Positions 3,474 to 52,695 of a DNA stretch of 63,419 nt are shown here, piece by piece. The stretch is from an uncultured bacterium. GTDB lineage: Bacteria; Bacillota; Clostridia; Christensenellales; UBA1242. The stretch spans positions 1 to 63,419 of the forward strand of contig CASLXJ010000001.1 of assembly GCA_949398915.1 (NCBI GenBank). The letters are read 5' to 3'. Made by a program: the position numbers and the translations under genes. The notes under the pieces were generated by a model. The model ran no database searches. It was not told the DNA's origin and worked only from the letters and a program-made list of their open reading frames with translations. The first letter of the stretch is position 1. Each line of letters opens with the position of its first letter.

Positions 3474-3625
3474 ACAAAACCAAATTGCCATGAAAAAAAA
3501 ACAACTCTTGCATATTTTTTATGATTCTTAAATAAAATTAAGCATAAAATCAAGAGTTGTTTTTTATGTCATAAATTCAATAATTTACTAAAAATAAAGA
3601 AAAATTCGCTTTTTTTAACCAAATT

Positions 3626-6441: not shown

Positions 6442-7407
6442 TTATAATATTCCAATTACAGCCATATAACCAAGAAGCACACCCATTCCACATAGAAGAG
6501 TAATCACTACATAAGAAAGAACAATGCGGTTTTCATGCACGCCAAGCTGTTCAAAATGGTGATGAAGAGGTGCCATTTTAAATATTCGTTTGTGCGTCTT
6601 TTTATAATATCCAACCTGCAAGATATCACTCACTGCTGACAAGACAAACATAATTCCAATGATAGCAAGAATAAGCTCCAGTCCTGTGAAAACACAAAGA
6701 CAGGCAAGCAGTCCGCCAATAGCCAGCGAGCCTGTATCCCCCATAAAAATTTTAGCAGGAAAGCCATTGAACAGCAGAAATCCTAAAAGCGCGCCAGCCA
6801 TAGCAAATGCTATTATTGAATAATTGTAATATCCAAGCAAAGCAAGAATGGCTCCAAAGAATAGAAGATAGACATGACTTACGCCACTTGCAAGTCCATC
6901 AAGTCCATCAGTAAGGTTTACAGAATTTGTCACTGCAACAAAGAAAACTACCACAAATGGAATTATAAACCAGCCCAAATTCAACTTAAGTCCAAAAAAG
7001 TCAAGCGTTCCGCCAATGTTGAAGTATACAAAAAGACCGATAATAAGCGAAAGACCAACCTGCCCAATGATTTTTTGATAGGGTTTCAAGCCTTCATTTT
7101 TGTGCCATTTGATTTTTATGAAATCGTCCAGAAAGCCAAGTAAGCCATAGCCCAACATGACAAGCAAGATTAAAATTGAATAAAGAAAATCTCCTCTTAA
7201 GAAAAATGGAGCCGAAAAAATTGTGGCAACAATAAATATCCATCCGCCCATTGTTGCAGTACCACTCTTTCCAGCATGCTTGTCCACATAGTGAAGAATG
7301 GTCTTAGAAAGATGAAATCTTTTGCAAAGTTTTAAAATAGGAATGCCAAATACAATTGCACTGACAAGCCCAACTAAAAAGACAAGAAAGAAATTCAACA
7401 TATTCAC
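6442..7407 (-). CDS. mraY: Phospho-N-acetylmuramoyl-pentapeptide transferase
   Basis: Polytopic protein with MraY motifs NLTDGLDGLA, MGDTGSLAIGG and APLHHHFE. Confidence 0.92.
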   Translation of the reverse strand: MNMLNFFLVFLVGLVSAIVFGIPILKLCKRFHLSKTILHYVDKHAGKSGTATMGGWIFIVATIFSAPFFLRGDFLYSILILLVMLGYGLLGFLDDFIKIKWHKNEGLKPYQKIIGQVGLSLIIGLFVYFNIGGTLDFFGLKLNLGWFIIPFVVVFFVAVTNSVNLTDGLDGLASGVSHVYLLFFGAILALLGYYNYSIIAFAMAGALLGFLLFNGFPAKIFMGDTGSLAIGGLLACLCVFTGLELILAIIGIMFVLSAVSDILQVGYYKKTHKRIFKMAPLHHHFEQLGVHENRIVLSYVVITLLCGMGVLLGYMAVIGIL

Positions 7408-7519
7408 CTCACACTACTATATGAATATTTTCTGCAACTTATTAAATTTCTTTCATGTCTTTTCAAGTTTCTTGTTTTAAAGCCTGCAAATAAAAACAGT
7501 TTTTTTCTTTTAGGCAGAA

Positions 7520-7638
7520 CGCAAGCCGCACAGCGCGGGAATTGCTTACATATTTGCTACTATTCGAGGCGTCATAGAGATAGTGGATAGTATGCATAGT
7601 TAGCAGTATTACTTCTGCCCGAACGGAGCCAAGAAAGC
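7520..7638 (-). repeat. Orphan, degenerate copy of the DGR TR/VR repeat in the murE-mraY spacer
   Basis: The reverse complement starts with gctttcttggctccgttcgggca (23 nt identical to TR 40805-40827). It ends with caattcccgcgctgtgcggcttgcg (23/25 identical to TR 40898-40922). The centre is diverged, with a 1-nt length difference and a stop codon in the VR reading frame. Confidence 0.8.
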
Positions 7639-7701
7639 AACTCATATTTTTTTACGATTATTTTGTCAAAAACATTAAATTAAAGCTTATTTTAGTTGGT
7701 C

Positions 7702-9192
7702 TTAGTCTTTGTCAAGAAAATAATCTTCTCTATTTATAATTTTTTTTTGACCTTTCAAGACCTCTCTAACAACATCAAAATCGCTGTAAGGATATTTTAC
7801 TCCATTTATCTCTTGATATTTTTCAGCACCCTTGCCTGCAATAACAATTGTCTGCCCATTTTGATAATTTTCCAAAGCATATTCTATCGCCTTTTTTCTG
7901 TTCGGCAAAACTTTGCAAGGGCCTTTCACTCCTTTTTTAATCTGTGAAATAATTGCATTTGGGTCTTCAAAACGAGGATTATCACTTGTGAGAATAATCT
8001 CATCCGCTTGTTGAGAGGCAATCCTTCCCATAATAGGTCTTTTTTGCTTGTCACGGTTTCCACCACATCCGAAAATTGCCACAACTTTGCCATCTGAAAT
8101 TTCTCTCGCCGTTTGAAGCACCTTCTCAAGTCCGTCTGGCGTGTGGGCAAAATCTATTACAATGTTCGCTTTGCCAGTGCTTATTGTGTTAAACCTTCCT
8201 TCAACTGCCTTAATCGCGTTTAGCCCTTCAAGAATGTTCCAATTGCTCAATCCCAAATTTTTGCAAACGGCAATCGCTGCTAAGGCATTTTCAACATTAA
8301 AGCTGCCGACCAACTTGGTTTTTACATCAAAAATATTTCCTTTATAATCTGTGCATGCAAAATGACTTCCAGAGAAATTTTTCTCAAAAATCCTGCCCGC
8401 ATAATCACAATCGCTTGTAAAGCCATAACTCAGCAAATTGACGCCAGATTTTTCAAGCAATCTGTCAGTGTAAGCTTTGTCAGCGCAATAAATTCCAAGA
8501 GTTGTTCTTCCTTTTTCAAACAGCTTCAGCTTTGCATCGGCATAATCATCCATATTTTCAAAAAAGTCAAGATGGTCTTCTGTGATATTTGTAAGCACAC
8601 CCATTTCAAACCTTATGCCATCAAGTTTATTGAGAGCAAGCGCATGAGCGGAGGCCTCCATAACAACAAAGTCAACTCCTTTGCCATTCATATTTGCAAA
8701 AATCGAGTGCAGTTTGTATGGGTCTGGAGTGGTAAAACCTGTATCTTCAAATTCACCATCAACCTTCGCACCAAGTGTTCCGATAACCCCTACTTTATAA
8801 CCCGCACCTCTAAGCATGTCAGCAATAGTGTTGCAAACAGTGGTTTTTCCATTTGTGCCAGTAATTGCAATAATACGAAGATTGTCACAAACTCTGCCAA
8901 AAAAGTTTTTGGACATAAGCGCATAAGCAGAGCGGACATCTCTTACATTGACAACTTTTTCACCGCTTTCAAGCTCATCACTTACAACGCACGCTGCGCC
9001 TTTTTCAAGCGCAAGCGATGCAAAGTCATTGCCATTAAATTGACTGCCCCTCATTGCAATATAAACATCACCTTTTTCAACTTGACGATGGTCGATTTTG
9101 ATATCCTTGATATCTTTTTCAAACAAGCTTTTGTCAATTTGTTCGCACTCTACATCTCTTAATAAACTTAATAAATTCATCTTCTCTGCCAA
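7702..9192 (-). CDS. murE: UDP-N-acetylmuramoyl-L-alanyl-D-glutamate--2,6-diaminopimelate ligase
   Basis: Mur ligase P-loop ITGTNGKTT. The DNPR motif (LTSDNPRFEDP) is characteristic of meso-DAP-adding MurE enzymes. Confidence 0.9.
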   Translation of the reverse strand: MAEKMNLLSLLRDVECEQIDKSLFEKDIKDIKIDHRQVEKGDVYIAMRGSQFNGNDFASLALEKGAACVVSDELESGEKVVNVRDVRSAYALMSKNFFGRVCDNLRIIAITGTNGKTTVCNTIADMLRGAGYKVGVIGTLGAKVDGEFEDTGFTTPDPYKLHSIFANMNGKGVDFVVMEASAHALALNKLDGIRFEMGVLTNITEDHLDFFENMDDYADAKLKLFEKGRTTLGIYCADKAYTDRLLEKSGVNLLSYGFTSDCDYAGRIFEKNFSGSHFACTDYKGNIFDVKTKLVGSFNVENALAAIAVCKNLGLSNWNILEGLNAIKAVEGRFNTISTGKANIVIDFAHTPDGLEKVLQTAREISDGKVVAIFGCGGNRDKQKRPIMGRIASQQADEIILTSDNPRFEDPNAIISQIKKGVKGPCKVLPNRKKAIEYALENYQNGQTIVIAGKGAEKYQEINGVKYPYSDFDVVREVLKGQKKIINREDYFLDKD

Positions 9193-21677: not shown

Positions 21678-24600
21678 TTATGCTGTATAGTCAAGTTTTT
21701 CAAGTTTCTCCATTGTTAAATTTCCTCCGTTGCTGCTTATCCATGAAAAGCCTTTTGGCAATGGTTGATTGTTTACTGCAATTGTCCAGTTTGCAAATGG
21801 GTTTGTTTCGCTATTGTTTGTAACATATTTCTTTACAGAGTTGTTGCTATCCTTGTTTTGTATATACAAACTACTCTTGATTGTTCCGCTTCCTTTTGTA
21901 AAGGCATAGTTTGTTGTTGAGTTTGCAAAGCAGTCGATTACGCTTCCGCCGTTTAAGTTGCCTGTAAGAAGACCTGTATTACTTCCACCTGTTACGCTTC
22001 CGATAAAGCCGCAAGATTGCAAGGTTATTCCGCTTGTTGTTGTTTGACCGAGTATTCCGCCGCAGTTTGCGTCTGAAGCAGTTGCAGTCACACTGCCCTT
22101 CATATAGCAGTTTTCAAGGCGAGTGCCGTTGTCACCATTACAACCCAATATTCCGCCTACATAGTCATTTCCGCTTACGCTTCCGTAGTTATAGCTTGAC
22201 AAGATTGAGGTGCTTACTCCGTAGCCTATCATACCTACATAGTTATGGCCTGTGACCGTTGCTCCGCTTCGGCAGTTTTCTACGCTTCCATTGTTGAGGT
22301 TGCCGACTATCGAGCCAACATAATCATAGCCTTGAATAGTGCCAGATATGATATTCACATTCTTTATCGTTGCATTTCTTGTATAGCCAAACAGGCCTAC
22401 ATTTGAATAATTCAATTGGCCATTGGCTATTGTTGTGATATTTGTTATCAAGTATCCATTTCCGTCATAGCTCCCTTGGAATGCTGTTGTTGCATTTCCT
22501 ATTGGCAGCCAGGTCTTTCCTTCTAGGTCTATGTTTGTGGTCTGCTTGAAATATTTTCCATCAAAGGTGACATTTTTACTTGTCTGCAATGCTAAGAAGG
22601 CAATATCCAGCTCGCTATCGATAATATATGGGTCGCCAACTGTTCCGCTTCCGCCTAGTCCGCTTAAGTCTATACCCGTTGCGTCTGCTGCCCATGTCCT
22701 TTCCCAGTGTGCATAGATTCTAGTATTTCCTGCGCCCATTGTAGTTGTGCTGTACACGCTTGAGCCTCCGCTTGCTGCTGTATACCAACCTAAGAAGATA
22801 TATCCTTCTTTTGCTGGTGTTGGTAGAGTGCCATAACTTGTATTGTAAATTACGCTTCTTGTCCTTGTTGTACCACTTCCATTCCAGTCACTTGGCACAC
22901 TTGTGAATGTTGCTCCTGTCATGTTCGCATCTGCTGTAAGCGTATAGCTGTTGACTGTCCAGTGTGCATAGATTGTTCTGTTTCCTGTTGTTGTCACTCC
23001 TGTTGTTGCACTCACAGCTTCTCCACTACTTGCCGCTGTATACCAGCCTGCAAAGGTATGACCTGTTCGGGTTGGAGTTGGAAGAGTGCCGTATGTAGAA
23101 TCAAATGTTATCGTTTTAGTTGCACTTGCTCCGCTTCCACTCCAACCACTTGTTGTTGGAATGCTTCCACCGTTTGCATTCGCTGTCAGTGTATATGTTT
23201 TTGCCTGCCATACTGCAAACAGATTTACTTCTCCTCCGTTCGAGCTTAGATTGCTTACACTCTGACCGTTTGAATAGACCACTCCTCCATTTTTACTTGT
23301 TGCCCAGCCTTTAAAGTCATAACCATTCCGACTGAAACCTAAAGCACTTATCGTCCTAAGCGCAGTAGACGAGCCATATTTGAAACCTGTATGGGATGCG
23401 GCTGATGCACCCGAATAGCCTGGATTATATACAACCGTATATGGCTTGCCATCCCAGTGCGCATAAAGGGTATGGTTGTTTGCATTCTTTAAAATTGTGT
23501 TGCTTTCAACTTTGCTTCCGCCGCTCGACGCTGTATACCATCCTGTGAAATTATATCCCGTTCTTGTAGGATTTGGAAGCGTGCCATAGTTGCTATCAAA
23601 ATTTAATGACTTTTGCGCAGAAGAGCCGCTTCCAGTCCAATTGCTTGATGATGGAATGCTTCCCCCATTAGCATTAAATGTCACTGTATATTGATTTGGC
23701 AACCAGTGCGCATACAAAGTAGCGTTTTCCAAATCATGCGACTTTAACCCTTTGCCATTCGCATCAATATATTGCGTACCACCAGAAGCAGAATCAAAAT
23801 AACCCAAGAAAGAATAACCAGCTCGTGTAGGCGTAGAAACATTAGGTATACTATACCCCCACTCAATAGTGGTCGTTGCAAAATCTTGAGTATTGTCATT
23901 CCTCATCAGTTTGATTGTCTCTGTATTTGCTATCCATCTTGCAGAGATACTTAACATATCTGGATCTGTAAAAAGAACACTATTTGATATATCAAGAGAT
24001 TTTGAATTTGGACCATATCGATAAGCATTCCATTTTTCAAAAGTATAATGATTTTTTCTAGGTGTACCAGATGGTACAGAATAATAATCACCAAATCTTA
24101 TATTTATTGATTTGACTCCAGTTGTTCCATCTCCAAAATACTCCCCACTATACAACGAATATTCAGCATAAAATCTTTTAGGTGCACAAACAACTGCTAA
24201 ATATTTTGTAGTTGTCTTACTTGAGAAAATTGTAGGGTCAACGCTTAATGAAAATTCATCATAAAGATATTGATTAAAAGTTATATTATGATTTTGAGAA
24301 GAATTTTCATAACTGAATGGAGAATCACTTAATATGTAATTTGAAACTCCAAACCCCTTGCTATAAAGGTTTACATCAATATCAAGAGTGCGCTTTGAAG
24401 ATCCATTCCAAACATATTGCAAATAAACCTCTTGATCATCAGCATAGGTTATTGGCTTTTGACCTCTTTCATTTACTATTGCGTCAATTGCAGTCGTTCC
24501 ACTGGTATCAAAGCCTGTCAATGTAAGATAACCAATAAAATAATCCCAACCATTGTTATTTGGTATACTTGATATCGGAATACCTCTAGAATTTTGATAT

Positions 24601-24863
24601 GTTCCTGTTCTTAAAGTATAATTTCCATTAAGTTTTGGCACTCCAACATTGCCATACGGATATCCCATATCTTCATAGGTATAGGTGTTGGTCAATGGGT
24701 TGTTATACCAATAAATCTTTGGTATAACTTTTATAGTGCCTGTCACGCCCTCAGTTTTTTGTTCTGGCTGTTTGAATGTCGTTGTAAGCAAAATTCCAGA
24801 AAGCAAAACTGTCAGAATTACGATAAAAGAGAAAATAAACTTGTTGATTTTCAAATTTTTCAT
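21678..24863 (-). CDS. Large surface protein, paralog 1 of 4 (N-terminal signal/anchor, 4-5 Flg_new Listeria-Bacteroides repeats, GLUG-like repeats, conserved C-terminal tail)
   Basis: Strong RBS AAGGAGGG. Repeated units of the form YTVTFNANGGS...PTRTGYNFTGWYT...LYAHW. The C-terminal third has GxxVGGIxG GLUG-like repeats. The tail NQPLPKGFSWIS is shared with the other paralogs. Confidence 0.8.
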   Translation of the reverse strand: MKNLKINKFIFSFIVILTVLLSGILLTTTFKQPEQKTEGVTGTIKVIPKIYWYNNPLTNTYTYEDMGYPYGNVGVPKLNGNYTLRTGTYQNSRGIPISSIPNNNGWDYFIGYLTLTGFDTSGTTAIDAIVNERGQKPITYADDQEVYLQYVWNGSSKRTLDIDVNLYSKGFGVSNYILSDSPFSYENSSQNHNITFNQYLYDEFSLSVDPTIFSSKTTTKYLAVVCAPKRFYAEYSLYSGEYFGDGTTGVKSINIRFGDYYSVPSGTPRKNHYTFEKWNAYRYGPNSKSLDISNSVLFTDPDMLSISARWIANTETIKLMRNDNTQDFATTTIEWGYSIPNVSTPTRAGYSFLGYFDSASGGTQYIDANGKGLKSHDLENATLYAHWLPNQYTVTFNANGGSIPSSSNWTGSGSSAQKSLNFDSNYGTLPNPTRTGYNFTGWYTASSGGSKVESNTILKNANNHTLYAHWDGKPYTVVYNPGYSGASAASHTGFKYGSSTALRTISALGFSRNGYDFKGWATSKNGGVVYSNGQSVSNLSSNGGEVNLFAVWQAKTYTLTANANGGSIPTTSGWSGSGASATKTITFDSTYGTLPTPTRTGHTFAGWYTAASSGEAVSATTGVTTTGNRTIYAHWTVNSYTLTADANMTGATFTSVPSDWNGSGTTRTRSVIYNTSYGTLPTPAKEGYIFLGWYTAASGGSSVYSTTTMGAGNTRIYAHWERTWAADATGIDLSGLGGSGTVGDPYIIDSELDIAFLALQTSKNVTFDGKYFKQTTNIDLEGKTWLPIGNATTAFQGSYDGNGYLITNITTIANGQLNYSNVGLFGYTRNATIKNVNIISGTIQGYDYVGSIVGNLNNGSVENCRSGATVTGHNYVGMIGYGVSTSILSSYNYGSVSGNDYVGGILGCNGDNGTRLENCYMKGSVTATASDANCGGILGQTTTSGITLQSCGFIGSVTGGSNTGLLTGNLNGGSVIDCFANSTTNYAFTKGSGTIKSSLYIQNKDSNNSVKKYVTNNSETNPFANWTIAVNNQPLPKGFSWISSNGGNLTMEKLEKLDYTA

Positions 24864-24933: not shown

Positions 24934-24961
24934 ATTTTACCCCCCCCCGAATAATTGTCAA
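24934..24961 (-). promoter_or_regulatory. Sigma-70-type promoter with a G9 homopolymer in the spacer (TTGACA-N16-TAAAAT)
   Basis: Minus-strand reading: TTGACA (24956-24961), spacer attattc + G9 (C-run 24940-24948 on +), then TAAAAT (24934-24939). About 70 nt upstream of the ATG at 24863. Confidence 0.6.
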
Positions 24962-25043
24962 CTTAATTTGCAATATTTTACAAAAATTTAAAAAAATATT
25001 TCTCAAACTAAAAAACAGGCGGAGCGGTTGCATTTTTACAAGC

Positions 25044-25072
25044 AAAAAAGACTGCATTTAAGCAGTCTTTTT
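25044..25072 (-). terminator. Rho-independent (bidirectional) terminator after the U32 peptidase gene
   Basis: Stem agactgc (25049-25055) / gcagtct (25062-25068), flanked by an A-run and a T-run. Confidence 0.6.
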
Positions 25073-26266
25073 TTATTCCTCTTTGCTTTTGTCAGAGCGT
25101 AATATATCACCTTTTTTTAAATTGTAAGGACAATTGATTTGAACAATTTCTTGAACGCGTTTTGCGTCGTCAATAATTTCACCTTTCTCATTTATAATCT
25201 TTGAAATTTTGATAGTCTTTAAGAAATTATCATCAGGGCTTAGCACTTGAAGCTCATCCCCCACTTTAAAACGGTTTCGCATTTCCACTTTGACAATCCC
25301 GTCTTTTGCATCCTCAACCACCTTTGCAATAAACACCGCAGTTTGAACAGGCATTGAGTCTTTTAAGTATTCCTTATCATCAGCACCGAAATAAAAACCT
25401 GTTGTATATCTTCTATGGCTTGTCTTTTCAAGCTCTTCATGCAATACATCAAAATCATCAAAGCCGTCCAAGGCCCTACGATAAGCATTGACAACACTTG
25501 CAACATAATAGTCACTTTTCATTCTGCCTTCAATTTTCAAACTTGCAATGCCAGCAGCTTTGAGTTTGTCTATGTGGTCAATAAGACACATATCTTTTGA
25601 GTTTAAAATATAAGTACCGCGTTCATCTTCCTCAACCTCATATTCATCCTCACGATTTTCTTCTCTTATAAAATATTTCCATCTGCATGCTTGAACACAG
25701 GCTCCACGATTGCTATCACGGCCAGTAAGATAATTTGAAAGCAAGCAGCGCCCAGAATAAGAAATGCACATAGCCCCATGGACAAAGGTCTCAATTTCAA
25801 TATTTGGATTTTTCTCATGAATATTTTTGATTTCTTCCAAATTAAGCTCTCTTGCAAGCACTATTCTGACAACCCCCATATCAGCATAAAACTTAGCCGA
25901 TTGAGAATTGTTTACATTTGCCTGTGTGGAAACATGAACATTAAGCTTTGGAAAGTTTTTTCTTATATAATAAATCAAGCCAACATCAGATACAATCACG
26001 CCGTCAACCTCAGCCCTTTCCAAAAGTTTGAGATATTCATCAATGCCCTCAAAGTCCCCATCTTTTGCAACGATATTTAAAGTAATATATCCAACTTTGC
26101 CACGACTGTGAAGAAACTGCATTGCCTCAACAATTTCTTCTTCAGAAAAATTGCCAGCAAAAGCACGAAGTCCAAGTGACTTTCCGGCAAAATAAACTCC
26201 ATCTGCCCCAAAATGAACAGCGGTCTTAAGTTTCTCAAAATTTCCTGCAGGTGCAAGAAGCTCCAT
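25073..26266 (-). CDS. Peptidase U32 family protein
   Basis: MELLAPAGN start with RBS GGAGG (the ORF-track TTG at 26278 lies inside the RBS). Typical U32 sequence, including the Cys-rich CISYSGRCLLSNY segment. Confidence 0.85.
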   Translation of the reverse strand: MELLAPAGNFEKLKTAVHFGADGVYFAGKSLGLRAFAGNFSEEEIVEAMQFLHSRGKVGYITLNIVAKDGDFEGIDEYLKLLERAEVDGVIVSDVGLIYYIRKNFPKLNVHVSTQANVNNSQSAKFYADMGVVRIVLARELNLEEIKNIHEKNPNIEIETFVHGAMCISYSGRCLLSNYLTGRDSNRGACVQACRWKYFIREENREDEYEVEEDERGTYILNSKDMCLIDHIDKLKAAGIASLKIEGRMKSDYYVASVVNAYRRALDGFDDFDVLHEELEKTSHRRYTTGFYFGADDKEYLKDSMPVQTAVFIAKVVEDAKDGIVKVEMRNRFKVGDELQVLSPDDNFLKTIKISKIINEKGEIIDDAKRVQEIVQINCPYNLKKGDILRSDKSKEE

Positions 26267-34898: not shown

Positions 34899-35040
34899 AC
34901 AATAAAAAGCACAGACTTTTTCTTGTCAATAAAAAACTACAGACTTATGCCATAACAATAAAAAAAAATAGGCTTATTCCTTAAAAAACACAAGCTTATT
35001 CCATAGCAATAAAAACCACCGGCTTATTCCCAGTGGTTTA
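34899..35040. repeat. Degenerate ~28-30-nt tandem repeats in an intergenic region
   Basis: Units of the form caataaaaa-N5-7-g(a/g)cttat(t/g)cc occur 4-5 times. The last unit forms a hairpin aaccac/gtggtt followed by a T-rich run. Confidence 0.5.
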
Positions 35041-37717: not shown

Positions 37718-40579
37718 CTATATTGAAGTGTATCCAAGCTGGGTAAGCTTGCTTGCTGTCAAACTGCTATCACTGACAACACCCATCCAAGCCAACTGCT
37801 TTGGTAATGGCTGGTTTTGCAAGGTAATAACCCATCCAGTGTAATTGGTTACTTTAAAGCGTTTAACGCCGTTTATCTCAAACACACAATTGGTGAAACT
37901 TGCATTTGTAAGACCATAATTATTCAGTGACTGCGTTGTGGTAAATGTCGCTCTCGCATAACAATTTGACACATTGCCCGCATAACCTATTGCGTAACCA
38001 CCGCTTGTAGTCAAGATTGAGCCTTCAAAATAACAATCTGTTATACTTCCAGAAATGTTGCCGACAATGCCTCCAACATCACTCACTCCTTCAATAGCGC
38101 CCTTAGAAATACAACTTGTAATAATAGCTGAGCCATTTCCTAGAATGCCTCCTACTTTGCTGTTTCCAGATACATCACCATAGTTGTAACATTTGCTTAT
38201 TGTTGAGGTTGAATAACCAACAATACCGCCAACAGCCCCACTTGTAGAGCTTCCATAAATATTACAAAAGCTTATGCAATCAGTAATAGAGCCAAGCAGA
38301 GAATACCCCACAATGCCTCCTATATTTGTATTTCCTGAGACTCTTCCGCTTGAAAGCCTGATATTTTTTAATGTTGCACTAGAAGCCGCCCCAAACAGCC
38401 CTTGATAGCTTTCATTGCCCTGAATTATAAGGTTTGATATGGTGTATCCTCCGCCGTCATAGCTGCCCTTAAATGGATATGTACTGCTGCCTATAGGCGT
38501 CCAAACCTTTCCAGACAGGTCAATCGACGCCGTCTGCTTAAAACTGCCTGTAAGCGAAGCTGTCTCGCTCTGCTTTGCCATCCATGCCAAATTTGCCGCA
38601 CTGGAAATTTGATATACTCCATTCACCTGCGATGGTGCGGTGACACTTGCTGAGCTGCCCTCTTTCCAAACAGCATACAAGGTGACCGGCCCAGTGCAAG
38701 TTATCGACGCACCATCTTGATAAATTACCACCCCACTTGACGAGGTTGCCCACCCCATAAACACATATCCACTTCGCTTAAAGGCGTTTCGGGTCAATGA
38801 AACTGTAGAGCCATGCGAAACTAATTGATTTGACATAGTCCCACTTCCGCCATTCGAATTGAAAGTAATGACATAATTTTTAATTGTCCATTGTGCATAA
38901 ATAATATGGTCGGAAGTCTTATTCATTGCTGTGCCTGTCGAAATCTGCGTGCCACCACTCGCCGCATCATACCACCCTTTCAAGTTGTACCCCGTCCGCG
39001 AAACGGACGGCAATGTGGAGTATGCGGAGCCATAGCTTACCTTCTTTATTGCCACACTTCCACTGCCGCTCCAACCGCTCGTCGACGATATGGTACCGCC
39101 GTTTGCACTGGCGGAAATATTATAACTGTTTGCCTGCCATACCGCATTGAAATCAACCGTTGTAGTGCTAAACTCAGGCACTTCTGGAATGGTCAATGTT
39201 CCAGATGGTGAAAGATAATAATAGTAAGTCTTGCCATTTTTTACATAAGACCAACCGCTCAGCGTATACCCAGTTTTAGTTGGTTTTGGAAAACCTGAAT
39301 ACTCAGCCCCCTGCTTAATTCCACTTTGTGACGAAGCACTTTGCCCATTGTTTGGGTTGAAACGAAATGTATACTCAGGCGCCGCCGCTGAAGCGGCAGA
39401 GTTTAGATTGAGGTGAAGCGCAGGCCGCACAGCACGGGAATTGTTTACAAAGTTAAAACCAGGAGAGGCGCCGGAGGGGTAGAGATAGTAAGCATAGTTT
39501 GCAGTGAGGGAGTAGCCCGAACGGAGCCAAGAATAAGCTGACGCTGAGCCAGAGGTAGAGCCTACATTACCTAATGAAGATGTAGTAGTGCCATCATAAT
39601 TCTTTCGCTGGTCTGTTGAAGTCTGCCATATTCCATCGTAGGTTGTATCGTAGCCTGTTTCTGTTCTACTTGGAAGCCATAATTTGTCTCCTGCCCATTT
39701 ATAATAATTTGATTTATCTGGCAATGTTTGAGCTCCATAAGATGTATCCCAATTATAACTACTTAATTTTGCCGCATCTTCATTTGGATAGTTATATGAT
39801 GTATTTGCTCCAAGTTTACTGCGTGTGTCTTGATTTCTTTGCCACGAAACTTTGTTTGGCTCTACTATATAATTGCTTAAACTACCCATTGTAAAGTTTG
39901 CAAATATACTATTTGAACTTTTTGGCACTGTTGTATATCCTGTTGTTGAGGTGCCATATGCTCCTCCATTATTTAGGGTCACTGCATGTATATAGCTTGC
40001 TCCATACATTGCTGATGGATTATATACATTATATGCAGAGTTATACCAGTTTGCCGACCAGTCTGAGTATAACCCACCATTTAAGAAACCATAATATTCC
40101 CCCTCTGTTGCACTTCTTCCACTGAATGCACTCTGAGTGCTGTTTGAAAGCCATAAGGTCAAAATAGAATTTCCGTTTGTATCTTTTGAGAGATAAACCA
40201 CCTGCCAATCAAGGCCTCCTAAGGTGACTATTATATCTTGTGATGAGGTTTTATTATATGTTTTTGACCTTATTGTTGCTGCTGAAGTGCCTGGTTGGCC
40301 ATCTGAGGTTGAGCTTGCTGCCATGCTGTTTATTGTAGACATATTATATACACTGCTTGCCCCACCTGAAACATATTGGATAAGTTTATTCAAATTGTTT
40401 TCATCAAAATTATTTTTACCAGCACTCCAAATATCTCCAACTTTCACATAACTTGAGGTATCTGTATTTGTTATCGCTTCGGAAGTCTTAAAAGTGGTGC
40501 TTAAAAACACTCCGACCACCAAAATTATAGCCGAAAAGACTGTCGCAAAGACAAATGAAATTCCTCTTTTAGTTTTCAT
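37718..40579 (-). CDS. DGR target: large surface protein, paralog 2 of 4 (signal/anchor, N-terminal WLRS...VRPAL lectin-like variable domain, Flg_new repeats, GLUG-like repeats)
   Basis: RBS GGAGAAGG. Contains the VR at codons ~349-391 (SWLRSGYSLTANYAYYLYPSGASPGFNFVNNSRAVRPALHL). Three Flg_new-type units follow, then a GLUG-like GGIVG repeat region. Confidence 0.85.
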   Translation of the reverse strand: MKTKRGISFVFATVFSAIILVVGVFLSTTFKTSEAITNTDTSSYVKVGDIWSAGKNNFDENNLNKLIQYVSGGASSVYNMSTINSMAASSTSDGQPGTSAATIRSKTYNKTSSQDIIVTLGGLDWQVVYLSKDTNGNSILTLWLSNSTQSAFSGRSATEGEYYGFLNGGLYSDWSANWYNSAYNVYNPSAMYGASYIHAVTLNNGGAYGTSTTGYTTVPKSSNSIFANFTMGSLSNYIVEPNKVSWQRNQDTRSKLGANTSYNYPNEDAAKLSSYNWDTSYGAQTLPDKSNYYKWAGDKLWLPSRTETGYDTTYDGIWQTSTDQRKNYDGTTTSSLGNVGSTSGSASAYSWLRSGYSLTANYAYYLYPSGASPGFNFVNNSRAVRPALHLNLNSAASAAAPEYTFRFNPNNGQSASSQSGIKQGAEYSGFPKPTKTGYTLSGWSYVKNGKTYYYYLSPSGTLTIPEVPEFSTTTVDFNAVWQANSYNISASANGGTISSTSGWSGSGSVAIKKVSYGSAYSTLPSVSRTGYNLKGWYDAASGGTQISTGTAMNKTSDHIIYAQWTIKNYVITFNSNGGSGTMSNQLVSHGSTVSLTRNAFKRSGYVFMGWATSSSGVVIYQDGASITCTGPVTLYAVWKEGSSASVTAPSQVNGVYQISSAANLAWMAKQSETASLTGSFKQTASIDLSGKVWTPIGSSTYPFKGSYDGGGYTISNLIIQGNESYQGLFGAASSATLKNIRLSSGRVSGNTNIGGIVGYSLLGSITDCISFCNIYGSSTSGAVGGIVGYSTSTISKCYNYGDVSGNSKVGGILGNGSAIITSCISKGAIEGVSDVGGIVGNISGSITDCYFEGSILTTSGGYAIGYAGNVSNCYARATFTTTQSLNNYGLTNASFTNCVFEINGVKRFKVTNYTGWVITLQNQPLPKQLAWMGVVSDSSLTASKLTQLGYTSI
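39384..39397 (-). promoter_or_regulatory. GC-rich hairpin just 3' of the VR (candidate DGR target-recognition cruciform)
   Basis: gccgc-ttca-gcggc on the coding strand, 12 nt after the VR end. It follows the GC-rich IMH-like gtgcggcctgcgc. Confidence 0.55.
39409..39533 (-). repeat. DGR variable repeat (VR)
   Basis: Its reverse complement aligns gap-free over 125 nt with TR 40808-40932. There are 17 mismatches, all at positions where the TR has adenine. Confidence 0.92.
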
Positions 40580-40807: not shown

Positions 40808-40932
40808 TTCTTGGCTCCGTTCGGGCAACAACAACAATGCAAACAATGCATACAATCTCAACCCCTCCGGCGCCTCTAATGGTAATAACAATGTAAACAA
40901 TTCCCGTGCTGTGCGGCCTGCGCTTCACCACA
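40808..40932 (+). repeat. DGR template repeat (TR)
   Basis: Adenine-rich AAC/AAT codon run (aacaacaacaatgcaaacaatgcatacaat...). It lies outside any gene and is invariant at non-A positions relative to the VR. Confidence 0.92.
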
Positions 40933-41170
40933 CTTGGATAAAACCAAGTTTTCCAGAATTTGACGAGAGATTTTCCGCCAAACAGTAAGATTTGAGGTGA
41001 AGGGGTCTTTGTCCCACCTAGCATATAATTGATATGAGGGTAAACAAGGTTTAATCTTCTTTCAACGGCATGACAAAACATTGTCACTTTTGAAAGATGA
41101 GCTTTCTTCTCAGTTACAAATTTTGAAAGCGGTTAAACCATCATTCAGTCGGCAAAAGACGCTGACTGAG

Positions 41171-41205
41171 AAAAAGGAGAGAAATGCTCTCCTTTTTTTA
41201 TTTTT
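41171..41205. terminator. Bidirectional terminator shared by the TR RNA (+) and the RT-avd operon (-)
   Basis: Stem ggagag (41176-41181) / ctctcc (41187-41192), with T7 downstream on + and A5 upstream (T5 on the minus strand). Confidence 0.65.
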
Positions 41206-41335: not shown

Positions 41336-41797
41336 TTATTTTGAGGACTTAATCCAGCCTGCAAGCAGTTTTTGCACCTCGCAAATTTGTTTTGCAATGA
41401 CCTCGCACTGATGATTGTTTATTGCCTGCATAGTTTTGGCTGTATCTGCGTAAAAATCAAGCATATGAAGATATACATTTGCTCTGGTCTGATAAGCGAG
41501 GCGTTTTTCACCACGCTCGAAATTGGCTTGATAGAGATAGTCAATTATTTGACTTGAGTAGTTTTGAAGCCTTGCGATAATGCTCCAGCGATATTTCTTC
41601 GGCGACTTTTCTGTGATGACGAAGATATATTCGCAAAGTTTTTTTGCGTGAGTAAACACAGCCATTTCTTTTTGTTTGCTTTTTGGAGAAGAAAGCTCAT
41701 CAATGATAAACTCCTTTCTTGCCACCTGTTTTTGAAGGGCTTTAAGCTCTTTTTCTGCCGAGTTTTCACCCAAAAAATTCATCTGATTGTTTTCCAT
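41336..41797 (-). CDS. avd: DGR accessory variability determinant (Avd-like four-helix-bundle protein)
   Basis: 153 aa, all-helical. Pattern KKLCEYIFVITEKSPKKYRWSIIARLQN...LAGWIKS is typical of the Avd / 23S-rRNA-IVS four-helix-bundle family. Begins 19 nt downstream of the RT stop. Confidence 0.75.
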   Translation of the reverse strand: MENNQMNFLGENSAEKELKALQKQVARKEFIIDELSSPKSKQKEMAVFTHAKKLCEYIFVITEKSPKKYRWSIIARLQNYSSQIIDYLYQANFERGEKRLAYQTRANVYLHMLDFYADTAKTMQAINNHQCEVIAKQICEVQKLLAGWIKSSK

Positions 41798-41816: not shown

Positions 41817-42908
41817 TTATTTAATCATTTTCAAGATGGGACTGCTCACCTTCATTTCAAGTTTGAAGCAATCACCATGCATTAGATGACCATGATAAGC
41901 CTGCAATGACTGCATTACTTTTGCCTTATCAATAAAGCCCTCGCTGTATGCAATTTGAATAAGTCTTGCCCGCCTTTTAAATCTCTTAGCTGTCTTATTT
42001 GAAACTTTTTTAATCAGCTTTCCGGTCTTTGAAATTTGATAACGAAAACCAAGATAAGTAAGCCCATTTTTAAGCGGGAAAATTTGCGTGCGTGAGTTAA
42101 GTTTCAAGTCAAGCTTGTCAAGTTCTGCTTTTATCACATCAAGCAGAGTAAGCAAAAACTTTTTATCTTTATGTACAATTACAAAATCATCCATATATCT
42201 TGAATAGATTTTAACGCGAAATTTCTCCTTGATCATTCGGTCAAGTTTGTCAAGATAAAACATTCCAAATATCTGACTTGTTTGGTTGCCAATAGGCACC
42301 CCTCTGCCCGTTTTGTCACCCTCAAATTCAATTCTTTCAATTTCATATCGCTGCAAAAACTCTGGGCGTGTATGAAAGCTTTGGATAATTTTGACCACCA
42401 TGCTTTTAAGCCTTTCATCTTTAATCTCGTTTGCAATGCAATTTATCAAGACCCTGTGCGAAAGACTGGGGAAATATTTGAGAATATCACATTTTAAAAC
42501 ATAACCATTTTGCCCATTATCATGAACAAACTTTTTAAGCTTTTCTTCAAAACGCCTCAACGCATAATGCATTCCTTTTCCCTTTTGACAGACGCAATTG
42601 TCGAGGATTGCTTTTCTCGTAAAATAGGGGGCAAGCAAATCATCACAAATGACATGCTGCACCACTCTTTGACTGTAATAAAGCGTTTGTATTTCTCGTT
42701 TTTTCGGCTCAAATATGACAAAAGTGTTGTATCTGTCAATTTTAAATTTACCATCTTTGACCTTGCTAAAAATGTCATATAACTTAGACAGATTTCCAAT
42801 TTCAAAACGCACAAGAGACTTTTTATCACGCTTTGAAATGCGTCCTCTTTTATGTGCATTATAAATGGTTGAAAAAGAAAAAATATCCTCAAATTTGTCT
42901 TCAATCAT
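41817..42908 (-). CDS. DGR reverse transcriptase
   Basis: RT motifs include the DGR-diagnostic PIGNQTSQ and the catalytic YMDD (SRYMDDFVIV). About 363 aa, with no maturase/endonuclease or retron-type extensions. Confidence 0.9.
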   Translation of the reverse strand: MIEDKFEDIFSFSTIYNAHKRGRISKRDKKSLVRFEIGNLSKLYDIFSKVKDGKFKIDRYNTFVIFEPKKREIQTLYYSQRVVQHVICDDLLAPYFTRKAILDNCVCQKGKGMHYALRRFEEKLKKFVHDNGQNGYVLKCDILKYFPSLSHRVLINCIANEIKDERLKSMVVKIIQSFHTRPEFLQRYEIERIEFEGDKTGRGVPIGNQTSQIFGMFYLDKLDRMIKEKFRVKIYSRYMDDFVIVHKDKKFLLTLLDVIKAELDKLDLKLNSRTQIFPLKNGLTYLGFRYQISKTGKLIKKVSNKTAKRFKRRARLIQIAYSEGFIDKAKVMQSLQAYHGHLMHGDCFKLEMKVSSPILKMIK

Positions 42909-43243: not shown

Positions 43244-46201
43244 TCAGCTTACCTTCCAATATCCAAGCTCTTGCAATATTTCGAGGCTTAGCTGGTCACC
43301 AACTCCACCAATCCAAGCAAGCTCTTTTGGAAGAGTAAGACCGTCTTTTGTAATTATCCAATTTGAAAAATCATCTCCATAGCAAAACTTATTTCTGCCA
43401 ATTTCAAAAACACTATTTTTCAGCTTGCCTACGCCTATACTGCCGTATTCAAGCGCGTTGACATTTCCAAATAAAGTCATTCTGATATAACAATTTTCAA
43501 ATTCTGGATTTGAAGAGCCATAATAGAGATAACCAGCAACCACGCCAAAATTAGACATTACAGACTTAAGCGTTCCATTAAAATAATAATTATTCAAATG
43601 CACTCTTGTCATGCAACTGCCAATAAGCCCACCTACCTCAGAATTACCTGAAATACTTGACTTTACAAGAATGTTTGAAGCGAAGTAGTCGCCAGTGCAT
43701 CTTCCAACAATGCCGCCAACCGAGCTTTTTCCAGTCACATTACCATAATTATAACAAAGATTGGTTGTTATCGTGCCTGAATATCCGACAAGGCCACCTA
43801 CATTATTAGTACCTTCTACATCAATATGGTTTACGCAATTTGTAAAAATTGTCGCATTTGCATCGCCTACAATGCTGCCTACATTATTTCCTCCAACTAT
43901 CTTACCAGAAACAATTCTTATATTTGAAAGCTTTGAGCCGCTTGTCTGTCCAAATAGTCCTTGGTATGAATTTGAGCCTGTAATATATAGGCTTGAAATA
44001 GAATAGCCCTGCCCGTCATAATTGCCCTTAAATGGATATTTTTCATTGCCAATTGGCGTCCAAGGCATTCCAAACAAGTCAATTGAAGCGGTCTGAATAA
44101 AGTCTCCGCTTAAACTTTGAGTTTCACACTGCTTTGCCATCCACCCCAAATGCGAAGGAGAAGAAATTTCATATTTGCCATTATTCAAAACTGGAGCTTC
44201 AACATCACTTGTGAAACTATACTCCCAAATAGCATAAAGGGTTAAATCTTCATAAAAAGCAGTATAATGCAAATCGTTGTATTCAACTTCACCATCTGCC
44301 GTCGTAGACCAACCGGCAAAAACATAACCACTTCGTGTGAATTTGTTTGGATTTAAATAAACATTCATTCCATGTTTTACCGATTGCGTACTCATTGTGC
44401 CCACGCCTTCATTCGCATTAAAAGTGATTGTGTAAGACTTATCATCCCACTGCGCATAAATCATGTGATTTTCAGCGCTTATAAGCACCTTTGTCGAACT
44501 GCTTGATCCATTCGAGACTGTTGTTGATATTTGATTGCCGCCAATTGCAGCGTCAAACCAGCCTTTCAAGGTGTATCCCTCTCTCTTCACATCAGGAAGC
44601 TCACCATAAACACTTCCATAACTATAATTTCTCATAGCCGCAAGTCCAACGCCCGTCCAGTTTCTAGTGCTTGAAATTGTTCCACCATTTGCAATTGCTG
44701 CAACAGTATAGCTTTTTGCCGCCCACTGCGCAGTAAAGGTCACAGTAGCGCCATTTGTCCCATAGTTTTCAACAGGATTTAATGTCAAAGTCCCTGTCGG
44801 AGAGGTGTTGTATATTTTGTTGTTATAACTGCATTTCCAGCCAATTAAATCATAGCCTGTCTTTGTTGGAACATTAAAAGTAAAACTTCCACCTGCTTTG
44901 ACACCACTATAACTTGACGAGGTTGCTCCACTATAGGTGCCGCCGTTATAATTTGTAACAAAGGTGTATTCGTCTGGAATTGACTTTGCAATCTCAGATA
45001 AGTTGAGATGAAACGCTGGACGGACTGCATTAAGCACATAAACTGAACCATTTACCATACCGCTGCCCATAGGCTGAAGAGCATTCGCTTGATAATTATA
45101 ACTGCTTGCATCACCAGACCTAAGCCAAGAATAAGTACTTAACGTGTCTGACACAGTCCCTACATTTCCACTTATAGAAGTATTCGACATTTGTCCATCA
45201 TAATTCTTAAGCTGATTTTCACTTAATTTCCACATTCCAATATAAGATTTTGTATATCCAACTTCTGACAAACTTGGCAGCCAGATGTAGTCATTCGCCC
45301 ATGTTTGATTTAATGCATTGTTTGCATAATTTGTGTAGTTTCCACTGCTACTCCCAAAGGTATACGACTCGCCCATATAACTTCCATTATTTGGAATATT
45401 TGGCGACCAATTTTCATTTGGCGCAGAAAATTGGTCGCCAAATATTGTTTTTCTATTTTGTCCATATTCCTGCCATTTGACATCTATTGGTTTTACGATA
45501 TACTTTGTAAGACTTCCTGAAACACTTGGCATAGTGAATTTTGCAAATGCGCTGTTTGAATTTTGTGATGCCGAAACAGCTGAAGTTATGCTGGTGGAAT
45601 ACTGCCCACCATTATTAAGGGTGACTGCCCTAATATAACTTGCACCATACATATTTGCAGGATATTTTGCAGTCAAATCATTCTTATACCAATTTGCCGA
45701 CCATGAAGAATAAAATCCACTGTTGTAGAAGCCAAAATAAGAGCCCTCAGCTGTGCTTCTTCCACTGAAAGCACTTTGAGTAGAATTTGCCAGCCAAAGT
45801 GTAAGAATTGAATTTCCATTGTTATCTTTTGAAAGATAAACCACCTGCCATTCAAGGTCACCAAACTTGACAACAACATCTTGAGAGGAACTTTTTCCAT
45901 AAGTCTTTGCCCTTATTTGCGAAGCATTTGTTTTATTTGAAGCCATTGTATCTATTGTGCTCATACTTTTTATGCTGGCATTGCCATTTCCAGAGATATA
46001 TCTCAAAAGACTGTTGACATTATTTGCTGAAAATCCATTTCCATCCCATATTTCATTGACTTTCACACAGCTTGAGCTGTCAGTATAAGAAAGAGCTTCA
46101 GTATTTGTAATTTTTCCGCTGTAAAACAACCCCATTAAAAGAGAACAGACAGCAAACAGAAAACACGAACAAAACACTGAAAGCTTTCTGAAAATCTCCA
46201 T
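43244..46201 (-). CDS. Large surface protein, paralog 3 of 4 (same architecture as the DGR target but not TR-matched)
   Basis: RBS AGGAGG. N-terminal domain is homologous to the target (SWLRSGDASSYNYQANALQPMGSGMVNGSVYVLNAVRPAFHL), followed by Flg_new and GLUG-like repeats. Confidence 0.85.
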   Translation of the reverse strand: MEIFRKLSVFCSCFLFAVCSLLMGLFYSGKITNTEALSYTDSSSCVKVNEIWDGNGFSANNVNSLLRYISGNGNASIKSMSTIDTMASNKTNASQIRAKTYGKSSSQDVVVKFGDLEWQVVYLSKDNNGNSILTLWLANSTQSAFSGRSTAEGSYFGFYNSGFYSSWSANWYKNDLTAKYPANMYGASYIRAVTLNNGGQYSTSITSAVSASQNSNSAFAKFTMPSVSGSLTKYIVKPIDVKWQEYGQNRKTIFGDQFSAPNENWSPNIPNNGSYMGESYTFGSSSGNYTNYANNALNQTWANDYIWLPSLSEVGYTKSYIGMWKLSENQLKNYDGQMSNTSISGNVGTVSDTLSTYSWLRSGDASSYNYQANALQPMGSGMVNGSVYVLNAVRPAFHLNLSEIAKSIPDEYTFVTNYNGGTYSGATSSSYSGVKAGGSFTFNVPTKTGYDLIGWKCSYNNKIYNTSPTGTLTLNPVENYGTNGATVTFTAQWAAKSYTVAAIANGGTISSTRNWTGVGLAAMRNYSYGSVYGELPDVKREGYTLKGWFDAAIGGNQISTTVSNGSSSSTKVLISAENHMIYAQWDDKSYTITFNANEGVGTMSTQSVKHGMNVYLNPNKFTRSGYVFAGWSTTADGEVEYNDLHYTAFYEDLTLYAIWEYSFTSDVEAPVLNNGKYEISSPSHLGWMAKQCETQSLSGDFIQTASIDLFGMPWTPIGNEKYPFKGNYDGQGYSISSLYITGSNSYQGLFGQTSGSKLSNIRIVSGKIVGGNNVGSIVGDANATIFTNCVNHIDVEGTNNVGGLVGYSGTITTNLCYNYGNVTGKSSVGGIVGRCTGDYFASNILVKSSISGNSEVGGLIGSCMTRVHLNNYYFNGTLKSVMSNFGVVAGYLYYGSSNPEFENCYIRMTLFGNVNALEYGSIGVGKLKNSVFEIGRNKFCYGDDFSNWIITKDGLTLPKELAWIGGVGDQLSLEILQELGYWKVS

Positions 46202-46411
46202 ATTTTCCTCCTAAATTAAAAAATATAATTCACCCAATATCTCTATTATGTCATAATTTGTCGAATTTACAAAATAAAATATAAATATATTTTATCTTAT
46301 CATTCTTTAAATTTCATACGATAAAGCGTAAACAAAATTTGCTTCAAATAAAAATCAAAATTATTTAAAATTTGCAAACTCAATTTTTTCGACTTTTATC
46401 TGTTCAATCCT

Positions 46412-46439
46412 ATTCTACCCCCCCCCGAAATAAAGTCAA
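46412..46439 (-). promoter_or_regulatory. Sigma-70-type promoter with a G9 homopolymer in the spacer (TTGACT-N16-TAGAAT)
   Basis: Minus strand: TTGACT (46434-46439), spacer ttatttc + G9 (C-run 46418-46426 on +), then TAGAAT (46412-46417). About 210 nt upstream of the ATG at 46201. Confidence 0.55.
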
Positions 46440-46594: not shown

Positions 46595-46626
46595 AAAAAA
46601 ATCGCAAGCTTTGTTGCGATTTTTTC
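46595..46626. terminator. Bidirectional terminator after the pyrophosphatase-like gene
   Basis: Stem atcgcaa (46601-46607) / ttgcgat (46614-46620), flanked by A8 and T5 runs. Confidence 0.6.
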
Positions 46627-52339: not shown

Positions 52340-52521
52340 TTTTCTCCTTTTTTTGTTAAACAAAATAAATTTAATTTATGCTTTTATAGGTTATTGCCTT
52401 ATTCACTTTGTCATTTTATTTATGTCATAATCGACACATTTGCTTTTTTTAAGTAACTATCAATTTAATTTATTCGTTTAGAGTTTTTTCTGCCTAATAT
52501 ATAATATCATTTATCAATATT

Positions 52522-52549
52522 TATTTTCCCCCCCCCCGAAAAATGTCAA
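52522..52549 (-). promoter_or_regulatory. Homologous promoter element with a G10 homopolymer (TTGACA-N16-AAAATA)
   Basis: Minus strand: TTGACA (52544-52549), spacer tttttc + G10 (C-run 52528-52537 on +), then the weak -10 candidate AAAATA (52522-52527). Confidence 0.45.
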
Positions 52550-52667
52550 GCATTTTTCGGCAATTGCTGTTAAAGCGGTTGCATTTTTATTCAAGCAATA
52601 TCGAAAAAATAAATCATTTTTTAAAAAAAAATATTTAATTAACAAAATGATGCTTTAATTTCTTACA

Positions 52668-52695
52668 TGAAAAAGCGTCCTATCTTGATAGGACG
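52668..52695 (-). terminator. Rho-independent terminator downstream of feoB
   Basis: 8-bp stem cgtcctat (52676-52683) / ataggacg (52688-52695) with a 4-nt loop, followed by CUUUUU on the minus strand. Confidence 0.6.

Follow-up and report, generated by a model that had tools for sequence, protein, structure and literature searches.

Promoter switches driven by repeats have been described mostly in pathogens (Neisseria, Haemophilus, Treponema, Mycoplasma, and streptococci); studies of phase variation in gut commensals have concentrated on the invertible promoters of Bacteroides and Clostridioides. In sigma-70 promoters, the spacer between the -35 and -10 hexamers has an optimum of 17 ± 1 nt. 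In Mycoplasma hyorhinis, each vlp gene has its own poly-A tract in this spacer, and the genes are switched ON and OFF independently and in combination. In Treponema pallidum, tp0126 has a poly-G tract between the -35 and the -10, for which an optimum of 17 nt is experimentally established, and the poly-G lengths within strains range from 7 to 11, with a mode of 9 (PMC7864442). For porA of Neisseria meningitidis, the same paper summarises that shortening the 17-nt spacing abolishes transcription (PMC7864442). In streptococci, the intergenic poly-T tracts of Streptococcus pyogenes Spy1336/R28 and GBS bca are polymorphic in natural populations (PMC7098570).

The window considered here is the whole stretch of DNA that was analysed, 63,419 nt in length. 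It contains three genes for large Flg_new proteins (paralogs 1, 2, and 3), each preceded by a promoter-like site in which a G run makes up most of the spacer (sites 1, 2, and 3; Table 1). The sites resemble porA in that a G homopolymer lies within the sigma-70 spacer of a surface-protein gene, where slippage would set the spacing and the transcription level. However, porA is a single outer-membrane porin gene of a Gram-negative pathogen, whereas at least seven Flg_new paralogs of one uncultured, spore-forming gut member of the Clostridia are concerned here, with tracts that run directly up to the -10 and with spacers of 15–16 nt as the most frequent. T. pallidum is similar in that poly-G tracts of 7–12 nt are positioned in the promoters of several surface-protein paralogs (tp0126 and tprE/G/J/L). 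It differs in being a spirochaete pathogen whose system is experimentally verified, in the overlap of the tprL tract with the -10, and in having no DGR partner. The closest family-level analogue is vlp, a multigene surface family in a Firmicutes-derived lineage, but it belongs to a wall-less pathogen, has poly-A tracts, and encodes lipoproteins whose repeats vary in size. The streptococcal tracts provide a Firmicutes precedent for a naturally polymorphic homopolymer, but they are poly-T tracts between divergent genes, involve a regulator gene, are found at a single locus, and belong to Bacilli, not Clostridia. The invertible promoters of Bacteroides and of Clostridioides difficile (cwpV and flgB) likewise confer stochastic, heritable ON/OFF expression on gut-bacterial surface structures, but they act by site-specific inversion between inverted repeats, and no such repeats flank the poly-G promoters here. 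The type of mechanism is already known from porA, tp0126, and vlp; what the sites would add is its extension to commensal Clostridia and its pairing with a DGR. According to the original prediction, the mechanism is not known to be well documented in Clostridia-like Firmicutes. In accordance, our survey of the open-access literature yielded no account of promoters with a poly-G spacer in Clostridia, or family-wide in gut commensals, although the streptococcal poly-T precedent exists (PMC7098570).

Table 1 Features of the three G-tract sites and of the DGR in the window
Feature	Positions	Strand	Description
Paralog 1 promoter	24934–24961	-	TTGACA-ATTATTC-GGGGGGGGG-TAAAAT; G9 at 24940–24948; 16-nt spacer
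Paralog 1	21678–24863	-	1061 aa; N-terminal signal anchor and Flg_new (Listeria-Bacteroides) repeats, Pfam PF09479, E=2e-57
Terminator hairpin of peptidase U32 gene	25044–25073		12-bp stem, A/T runs; ~80 nt before the -35
Paralog 2 promoter	46412–46439	-	TTGACT-TTATTTC-G9-TAGAAT; G9 at 46418–46426; 16-nt spacer
Paralog 2	43244–46201	-	985-aa Flg_new protein
Terminator of upstream pyrophosphatase gene	46596–46625		
Paralog 3 promoter	52522–52549	-	TTGACA-TTTTTC-G10-AAAATA; G10 at 52528–52537
Paralog 3	49634–52339	-	901-aa Flg_new protein; ATG at 52339
Terminator of upstream feoB gene	52676–52695	-	
DGR paralog	37718–40579	-	953 aa; VR 39409–39533
DGR template repeat (TR)	40808–40932	+	Sense strand +, opposite to RT and Avd
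bAvd	41336–41797	-	PF22296; Pfam hit on identical gene arrangement in L002–L004
DGR reverse transcriptase (RT)	41817–42908	-	PF00078; Pfam hit on identical gene arrangement in L002–L004

G/C runs of 6 nt or more occur three times in the window, and all three lie inside promoter-like sites of the common form TTGAC(A/T)-N6-7-G9/10-TA(A/G)AAT. G8 matches number 7, overlapping ones counted, compared with 0.3 expected, and the full tract-promoter motif has 3 matches in the window and 0 in 100 shuffles. Sigma-70-like matches alone number 4 compared with 2.6 expected in this AT-rich region, which is not significant. The weight rests on the recurrence and conservation of the motif. With lengths of G9, G9, and G10, the runs are in the range of slippery repeats (homopolymers of ~7–8 nt or more). 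The order is the same at each site: the intrinsic terminator of the upstream gene, the G-tract promoter, and then the Flg_new paralog, with promoter and paralog on the same strand. The neighbourhood is core chromosome, with mur/dcw genes, ftsZ, and spoIIGA-sigE-sigG. The host is an uncultured, spore-forming mouse-gut member of the Clostridia; the matching assemblies come from mouse-gut MAG collections and carry the labels 'uncultured Eubacteriales bacterium' or 'Clostridia bacterium'. tRNA and Rfam scans of the whole window give no matches.

The original prediction proposed a near-consensus sigma-70 promoter at site 1. The site matches the consensus at 11 of 12 hexamer positions, and 9 nt of its 16-nt spacer are G. 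The same element was proposed to recur at the other two sites. It is present at both, with 10 of 12 hexamer positions matched at site 2 and 9–10 of 12 at site 3, but the third is not an exact copy, having G as the first base of its -10. In ten other assemblies, site 3 reads Gn followed by TAAAAT, so this -12 T>G substitution is peculiar to the allele in the window, and because of it the run counts as G10. The substitution probably weakens the -10 of site 3, and the window may carry a promoter-down or 'locked' variant.

Downstream of site 1, the leader is ~65 nt long and the ATG of paralog 1 is preceded at 7 nt by a strong RBS, AAAGGAGGG. The scan from terminator to ATG gives no second same-strand promoter match. 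The terminator hairpin upstream of site 1 is symmetric, so that termination is possible on either strand. An exact-protein look-up of paralog 1 in public assemblies returns no match. Among strains, the coding sequence of paralog 1 contains mosaic indel blocks of 180, 76, and 57 aligned columns and a 3-nt indel (alignment columns 7587–7937, corresponding to window positions ~23300–23700 by approximate conversion); the protein itself therefore differs between strains too. In the arrangement of L001 and L007, paralog 2 is missing and the DGR comes straight after the pyrophosphatase gene. Paralog 3 (P0029) is named 'InlB B-repeat-containing protein [Clostridia bacterium]'.

The three window paralogs are 901–1061 aa long and 32–47% identical pairwise. 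Each has a signal-anchor N-terminus and Flg_new (Listeria-Bacteroides / InlB B-repeat) repeats, as appropriate for surface-protein cargo. Four further paralogs of the same species group, P0002, P0019, P0035, and the neighbour of P0035, have the core C-Gn-TAAAAT within unrelated flanks; the non-G parts of their spacers are ATATATC, TTTTTC, ATCTGTC, and TTCAATC. P0002 is 77% identical to paralog 1. Across ten paralog promoters with unrelated flanks, conservation is limited to TTGAC(A/T), the G run with the C that precedes it, and TA(A/G)AAT. The family comprises at least seven large adhesin-like Flg_new paralogs, each with its own putatively slippery poly-G promoter. Duplication of one promoter region is ruled out, since the three upstream regions, once the core is left aside, align with one another only as well as random AT-rich DNA does. 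An inverton is ruled out as well: the matches around the promoters are confined to AT-rich low-complexity sequence and to the upstream terminators, with no specific inverted repeats, and the promoter is not flipped in any assembly compared. A separate element, AAATGCAACCGC / ACCGCTTTGAT(A/T)GCAA, is found at 25024–25035 and 52575–52586 and also in the upstream regions of L247 and L019. In several paralog promoters whose sequences are not related in other respects, it is positioned ~20–70 nt 5' of the -35.

To compare tract lengths, we collected loci from public assemblies by exact-protein look-ups of the neighbour genes and the paralogs, plus homologues, and counted alleles per distinct assembly. 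Near-identical places are collapsed in these look-ups, which gives a sample of ~8–11 assemblies per site, and the data are consensus assemblies of short-read metagenomes, which report the majority allele only. The tract of site 1 is G8 in two assemblies and G9 in six. At site 2, it is G8 in one, G9 in nine, G10 in one, and the interrupted GGGGGAGGGG in two. At site 3, it is G8 in three, G9 in five, G10 in one, and G11 in one, the window having G10 with the -12 T>G substitution. Comparison of tract length across strains had been set beforehand as a test that could refute the original prediction. The prediction withstands it: the length differs at all three sites among near-identical strains.

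In seven assemblies covering site 1, a single G of the tract is the sole difference over 7,587 aligned columns (7.6 kb), and twelve A/T runs of 7–9 nt in the same 7.6 kb are invariant. The G8 allele of site 1 is found on two backgrounds, an identical one (L115) and one with a local SNP cluster (L119). The genes 3' of G8 alleles have intact reading frames (1061 aa in the case of L115), which fits a reversible state, not gene decay. The 901-aa protein downstream of the site-3 alleles is 100% identical throughout, and two assemblies encode an identical P0019 protein, one behind G10 and the other behind G9. That the same alleles turn up repeatedly on identical backgrounds hints at reversible switching within populations. 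Within one assembly, the tract states at different sites are independent. GCA_948604925.1 has G9 at site 2 and G8 at site 3, ERZ941065 has G9 at site 2 and G10 at site 3, and GCA_949491115.1 has G8 at site 1 and G10 at the P0019 locus.

In the diverged lineage of L005 and L008 (GCA_948596945.1 and GCA_949031345.1), the tract of site 2 is interrupted, reading GGGGGAGGGG (L005:6540–6560). Being 10 nt long and interrupted, this allele is not slippery and gives the canonical 17-nt spacer. It is a candidate fixed-ON allele. Across all loci, interrupted tracts (n=3) have spacers of 16–17 nt, an anecdotal result, but one that would be expected of alleles locked in the ON state and that lends indirect support to the predicted dependence of transcription on tract length.

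We consider it likely that slippage in the poly-G spacer switches the expression of each Flg_new surface-protein gene independently. Very probably, we are dealing with a known type of expression switch, driven by slippage, in a little-studied group. The model draws on the established spacing of sigma-70 promoters and on the experimentally characterised poly-G spacers of porA and tp0126. Each of the three genes would have its own promoter for the housekeeping sigma factor (sigma-70/SigA type), with a spacer consisting mostly of a G run that abuts the -10. Slipped-strand mispairing during replication would add or remove single G residues, shifting the spacer between 15, 16, and 17 nt at sites 1 and 2 and between 14 and 17 nt at site 3. 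The length of the spacer would determine how RNA polymerase contacts both hexamers and, through this, the strength of transcription. With a separate tract for each paralog and independent changes, a clonal population would come to consist of cells that differ in which members of the family they display. This would amount to combinatorial or rheostat-like phase variation. One sister paralog would instead have an ordinary promoter and be varied in sequence by the DGR.

At sites 1 and 2, the predicted spacer states are 17 nt for G10, 16 nt for G9, the commonest, and 15 nt for G8. By analogy with the characterised promoters, we infer that 17 nt is the strongest state and that 14–15 nt is off. We also infer that the hexamers are the promoter in use, that tract length alters expression, and that switching is frequent and reversible. 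The commonest spacers fall short of the 17-nt optimum, with 16 nt at both site 1 and site 2 and 15 nt at site 3. It is possible that most populations hold these genes low or off, or that the GGG at -15 to -13 shifts the optimum, and the tract may work as a rheostat or via another contact. The hints as to the ON length conflict, since interrupted alleles have spacers of 16–17 nt (n=3), whereas the mode of the pure tracts is 15–16 nt.

The DGR paralog is most closely related to paralog 2 (46.5% identity over the full length). The DGR has an RT, Avd, and a TR/VR pair, and all 17 mismatches between TR and VR are at TR adenines (17/17). The VR lies inside a region matched by Pfam to DUF6273. The TR/VR pair was found by low-stringency blastn and is missed by a gapless direct-repeat finder. 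No G tract is present 5' of the DGR paralog, where there is only a weak TTGCAT-17-TACAAT match that is below the scan criteria. The original prediction thus holds for this gene, both in that the paralog diversified by a real DGR lacks the tract and in that one protein family combines two strategies, poly-G promoters predicted to vary expression and a DGR varying sequence. The TR is inverted relative to the VR and is followed by a hairpin and T run on the + strand at 41169–41199; a simple scan gives no + strand promoter 5' of the TR. A further stretch of 122 nt (7520–7641) is 78% identical to the TR, with mismatches that are not adenine-specific. It is located in a ~290-nt gap between a MraY-like gene (6442–7407) and a Mur ligase gene (7702–9192), within a 60-aa orphan ORF (7463–7645) that resembles a fragment of a variable lectin-like domain.

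The same architecture is found in other bacteria. We scanned one genome per species, plus metagenomes, with the pattern TTGAC-N4-6-TTC-G7+-N0-5-ARAAT, and obtained 102 loci in the species-representative genomes and at least 120 in the metagenomes. In most of the matches listed, the G run directly abuts TA(A/G)AAT, though the pattern allowed up to 5 arbitrary bases between them. Several genomes have many copies, positioned 5' of paralogous secreted proteins; among these are gut Clostridia MAGs of mouse, rabbit, chicken, and human origin, a Bacilli MAG, Granulicatella, and a gut Treponema. Among the species-representative loci (L011–L112), a gut Treponema MAG has 4 sites and a rabbit-gut Bacilli MAG has 3, located 5' of lipoprotein-like or secreted ORFs; Granulicatella MAGs and a MAG of the candidate phylum Nomurabacteria have the same promoter architecture in the same position. 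Human-gut contigs of GC ~55% contain, among the matches listed, orthologous groups with G7–G11 and highly similar flanks. By their nearest named homologues, labelled Clostridia, Lachnospiraceae, or Ruminococcaceae bacterium, these contigs belong to Clostridia. In one Clostridia lineage of these human-gut contigs (L120–L239), many promoters among the matches listed read TTGACTTTTTTC-G(7-11)-TAAAAT, and they precede small zinc-ribbon ('TFIIB-type zinc finger') and membrane proteins.

An N-terminal hydrophobic segment is predicted for 70% of the ORFs that follow abutting G8+ promoters, compared with 19% of the background (odds ratio 9.6, p=4e-23), by a crude predictor and against a background set that includes spurious ORFs. 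Across taxa, the modal total spacer among the loci listed is 15 nt, not 17 nt, and G length offsets non-G length, so that the total spacer is constrained. We tentatively raise the possibility, about which we remain somewhat doubtful, that this is a widespread, unrecognised contingency-locus architecture. It would consist of TTGAC(A/T), a short A/T-rich stretch, C, and G7–11 abutting TA(A/G)AAT, partnered in the present case with the DGR of a sister paralog.

Some of the observations at sites 2 and 3 could be read differently. The tract could be hypermutable while the genes are controlled from the long leaders, by a proximal promoter or by an operator to which a repressor binds, leaving tract length to fine-tune expression or to have no effect. 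The leaders of sites 2 and 3 are ~210 and ~180 nt long, respectively. In the former, ~50 nt ahead of the ATG, there is a -10 candidate of the TG-extended type (TTGTAA-16-TGaCATAAT), which in the L005 lineage is a perfect TGATATAAT. Both contain the palindrome TTATGACATAA, for which the window has 17 matches with at most one mismatch, compared with 2.8 expected. The 11-nt palindrome TTATGNCATAA is located at 46246–46256, 52420–52430, 3564–3574, and 34945–34955, and its copies in the leaders of paralogs 2 and 3 have the context TCGA..TTATGACATAA. The palindrome is possibly an operator or part of a second promoter. Permissive Rfam scans of the two leaders detect no known riboswitch or leader RNA. 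Given the long leaders, the palindrome, and the second -10 candidate, a second promoter or a repressor could dominate at sites 2 and 3, and the usual spacers of 15–16 nt, not 17 nt, point in the same direction. However, the short leader of site 1 has no other same-strand promoter match, and the proximal -10-like CATAAA of site 3 is poor, without the conserved final T. Moreover, the -35, the tract, and the -10 are the sole elements conserved across the ten paralog promoters, which is hard to explain if they are unused. We therefore regard control from the leaders as unlikely.

Two further readings concern the length differences themselves, and we give very little weight to either. If the differences were sequencing or assembly errors at poly-G, the tract would be a fixed cis element. 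In favour of this, the data come entirely from metagenomes assembled from short reads, the differences mostly amount to ±1 nt, coverage is only ~4.8x in the most extreme assembly (L256, with G10/G11), and several scan matches are near contig ends. However, consensus assemblies at normal coverage seldom miscall 9-mers. The minority alleles recur independently, with G8 in three samples at site 3 and in two at site 1, and the ranges span 4–5 lengths (G8–G11 here and G7–G11 in other species). In addition, the interrupted allele and -12 T>G are substitutions, not length errors, and sites within one assembly deviate independently. Alternatively, the G run could be kept for a family-specific regulator, a nucleoid protein, or a structural role by the -10, the length variation being incidental noise. 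Such a role, equally improbable in our view, would be consistent with the position of the tract, which in this species always abuts the -10 and always follows a C, with the GGG at -15 to -13, which keeps the G-14 of the extended -10 motif, and with the modal G length, which in this species is ~9 whatever the length of the non-G part. But the architecture is found across unrelated phyla, in Clostridia, Bacilli, Treponema, and a Nomurabacteria MAG, which makes one common regulator impossible, and in the wider set G length offsets non-G length under a constrained total spacer. Whatever binds to the run, a change of length between a real -35 and -10 must alter their spacing. Slippage that switches expression is thus the reading we prefer.

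If the widespread reading is true, secreted and surface families in uncultured gut Clostridia and Bacilli, in spirochaetes, and in Nomurabacteria carry their own copies of the architecture. Combinatorial phase variation based on simple sequence repeats (SSR) would then be one of the main generators of surface heterogeneity among commensal Firmicutes, comparable to the invertons of Bacteroides, with some paralogs varied in expression and one in sequence by the DGR. If switching at the three sites is true, MAGs hide tract heterogeneity, because a single tract length is reported per assembly, and the motif would offer a simple sequence signature for mining such loci across microbiomes. Commensal Clostridia would then make surface heterogeneity stochastically, which would bear on IgA targeting, phage receptors, and colonisation.
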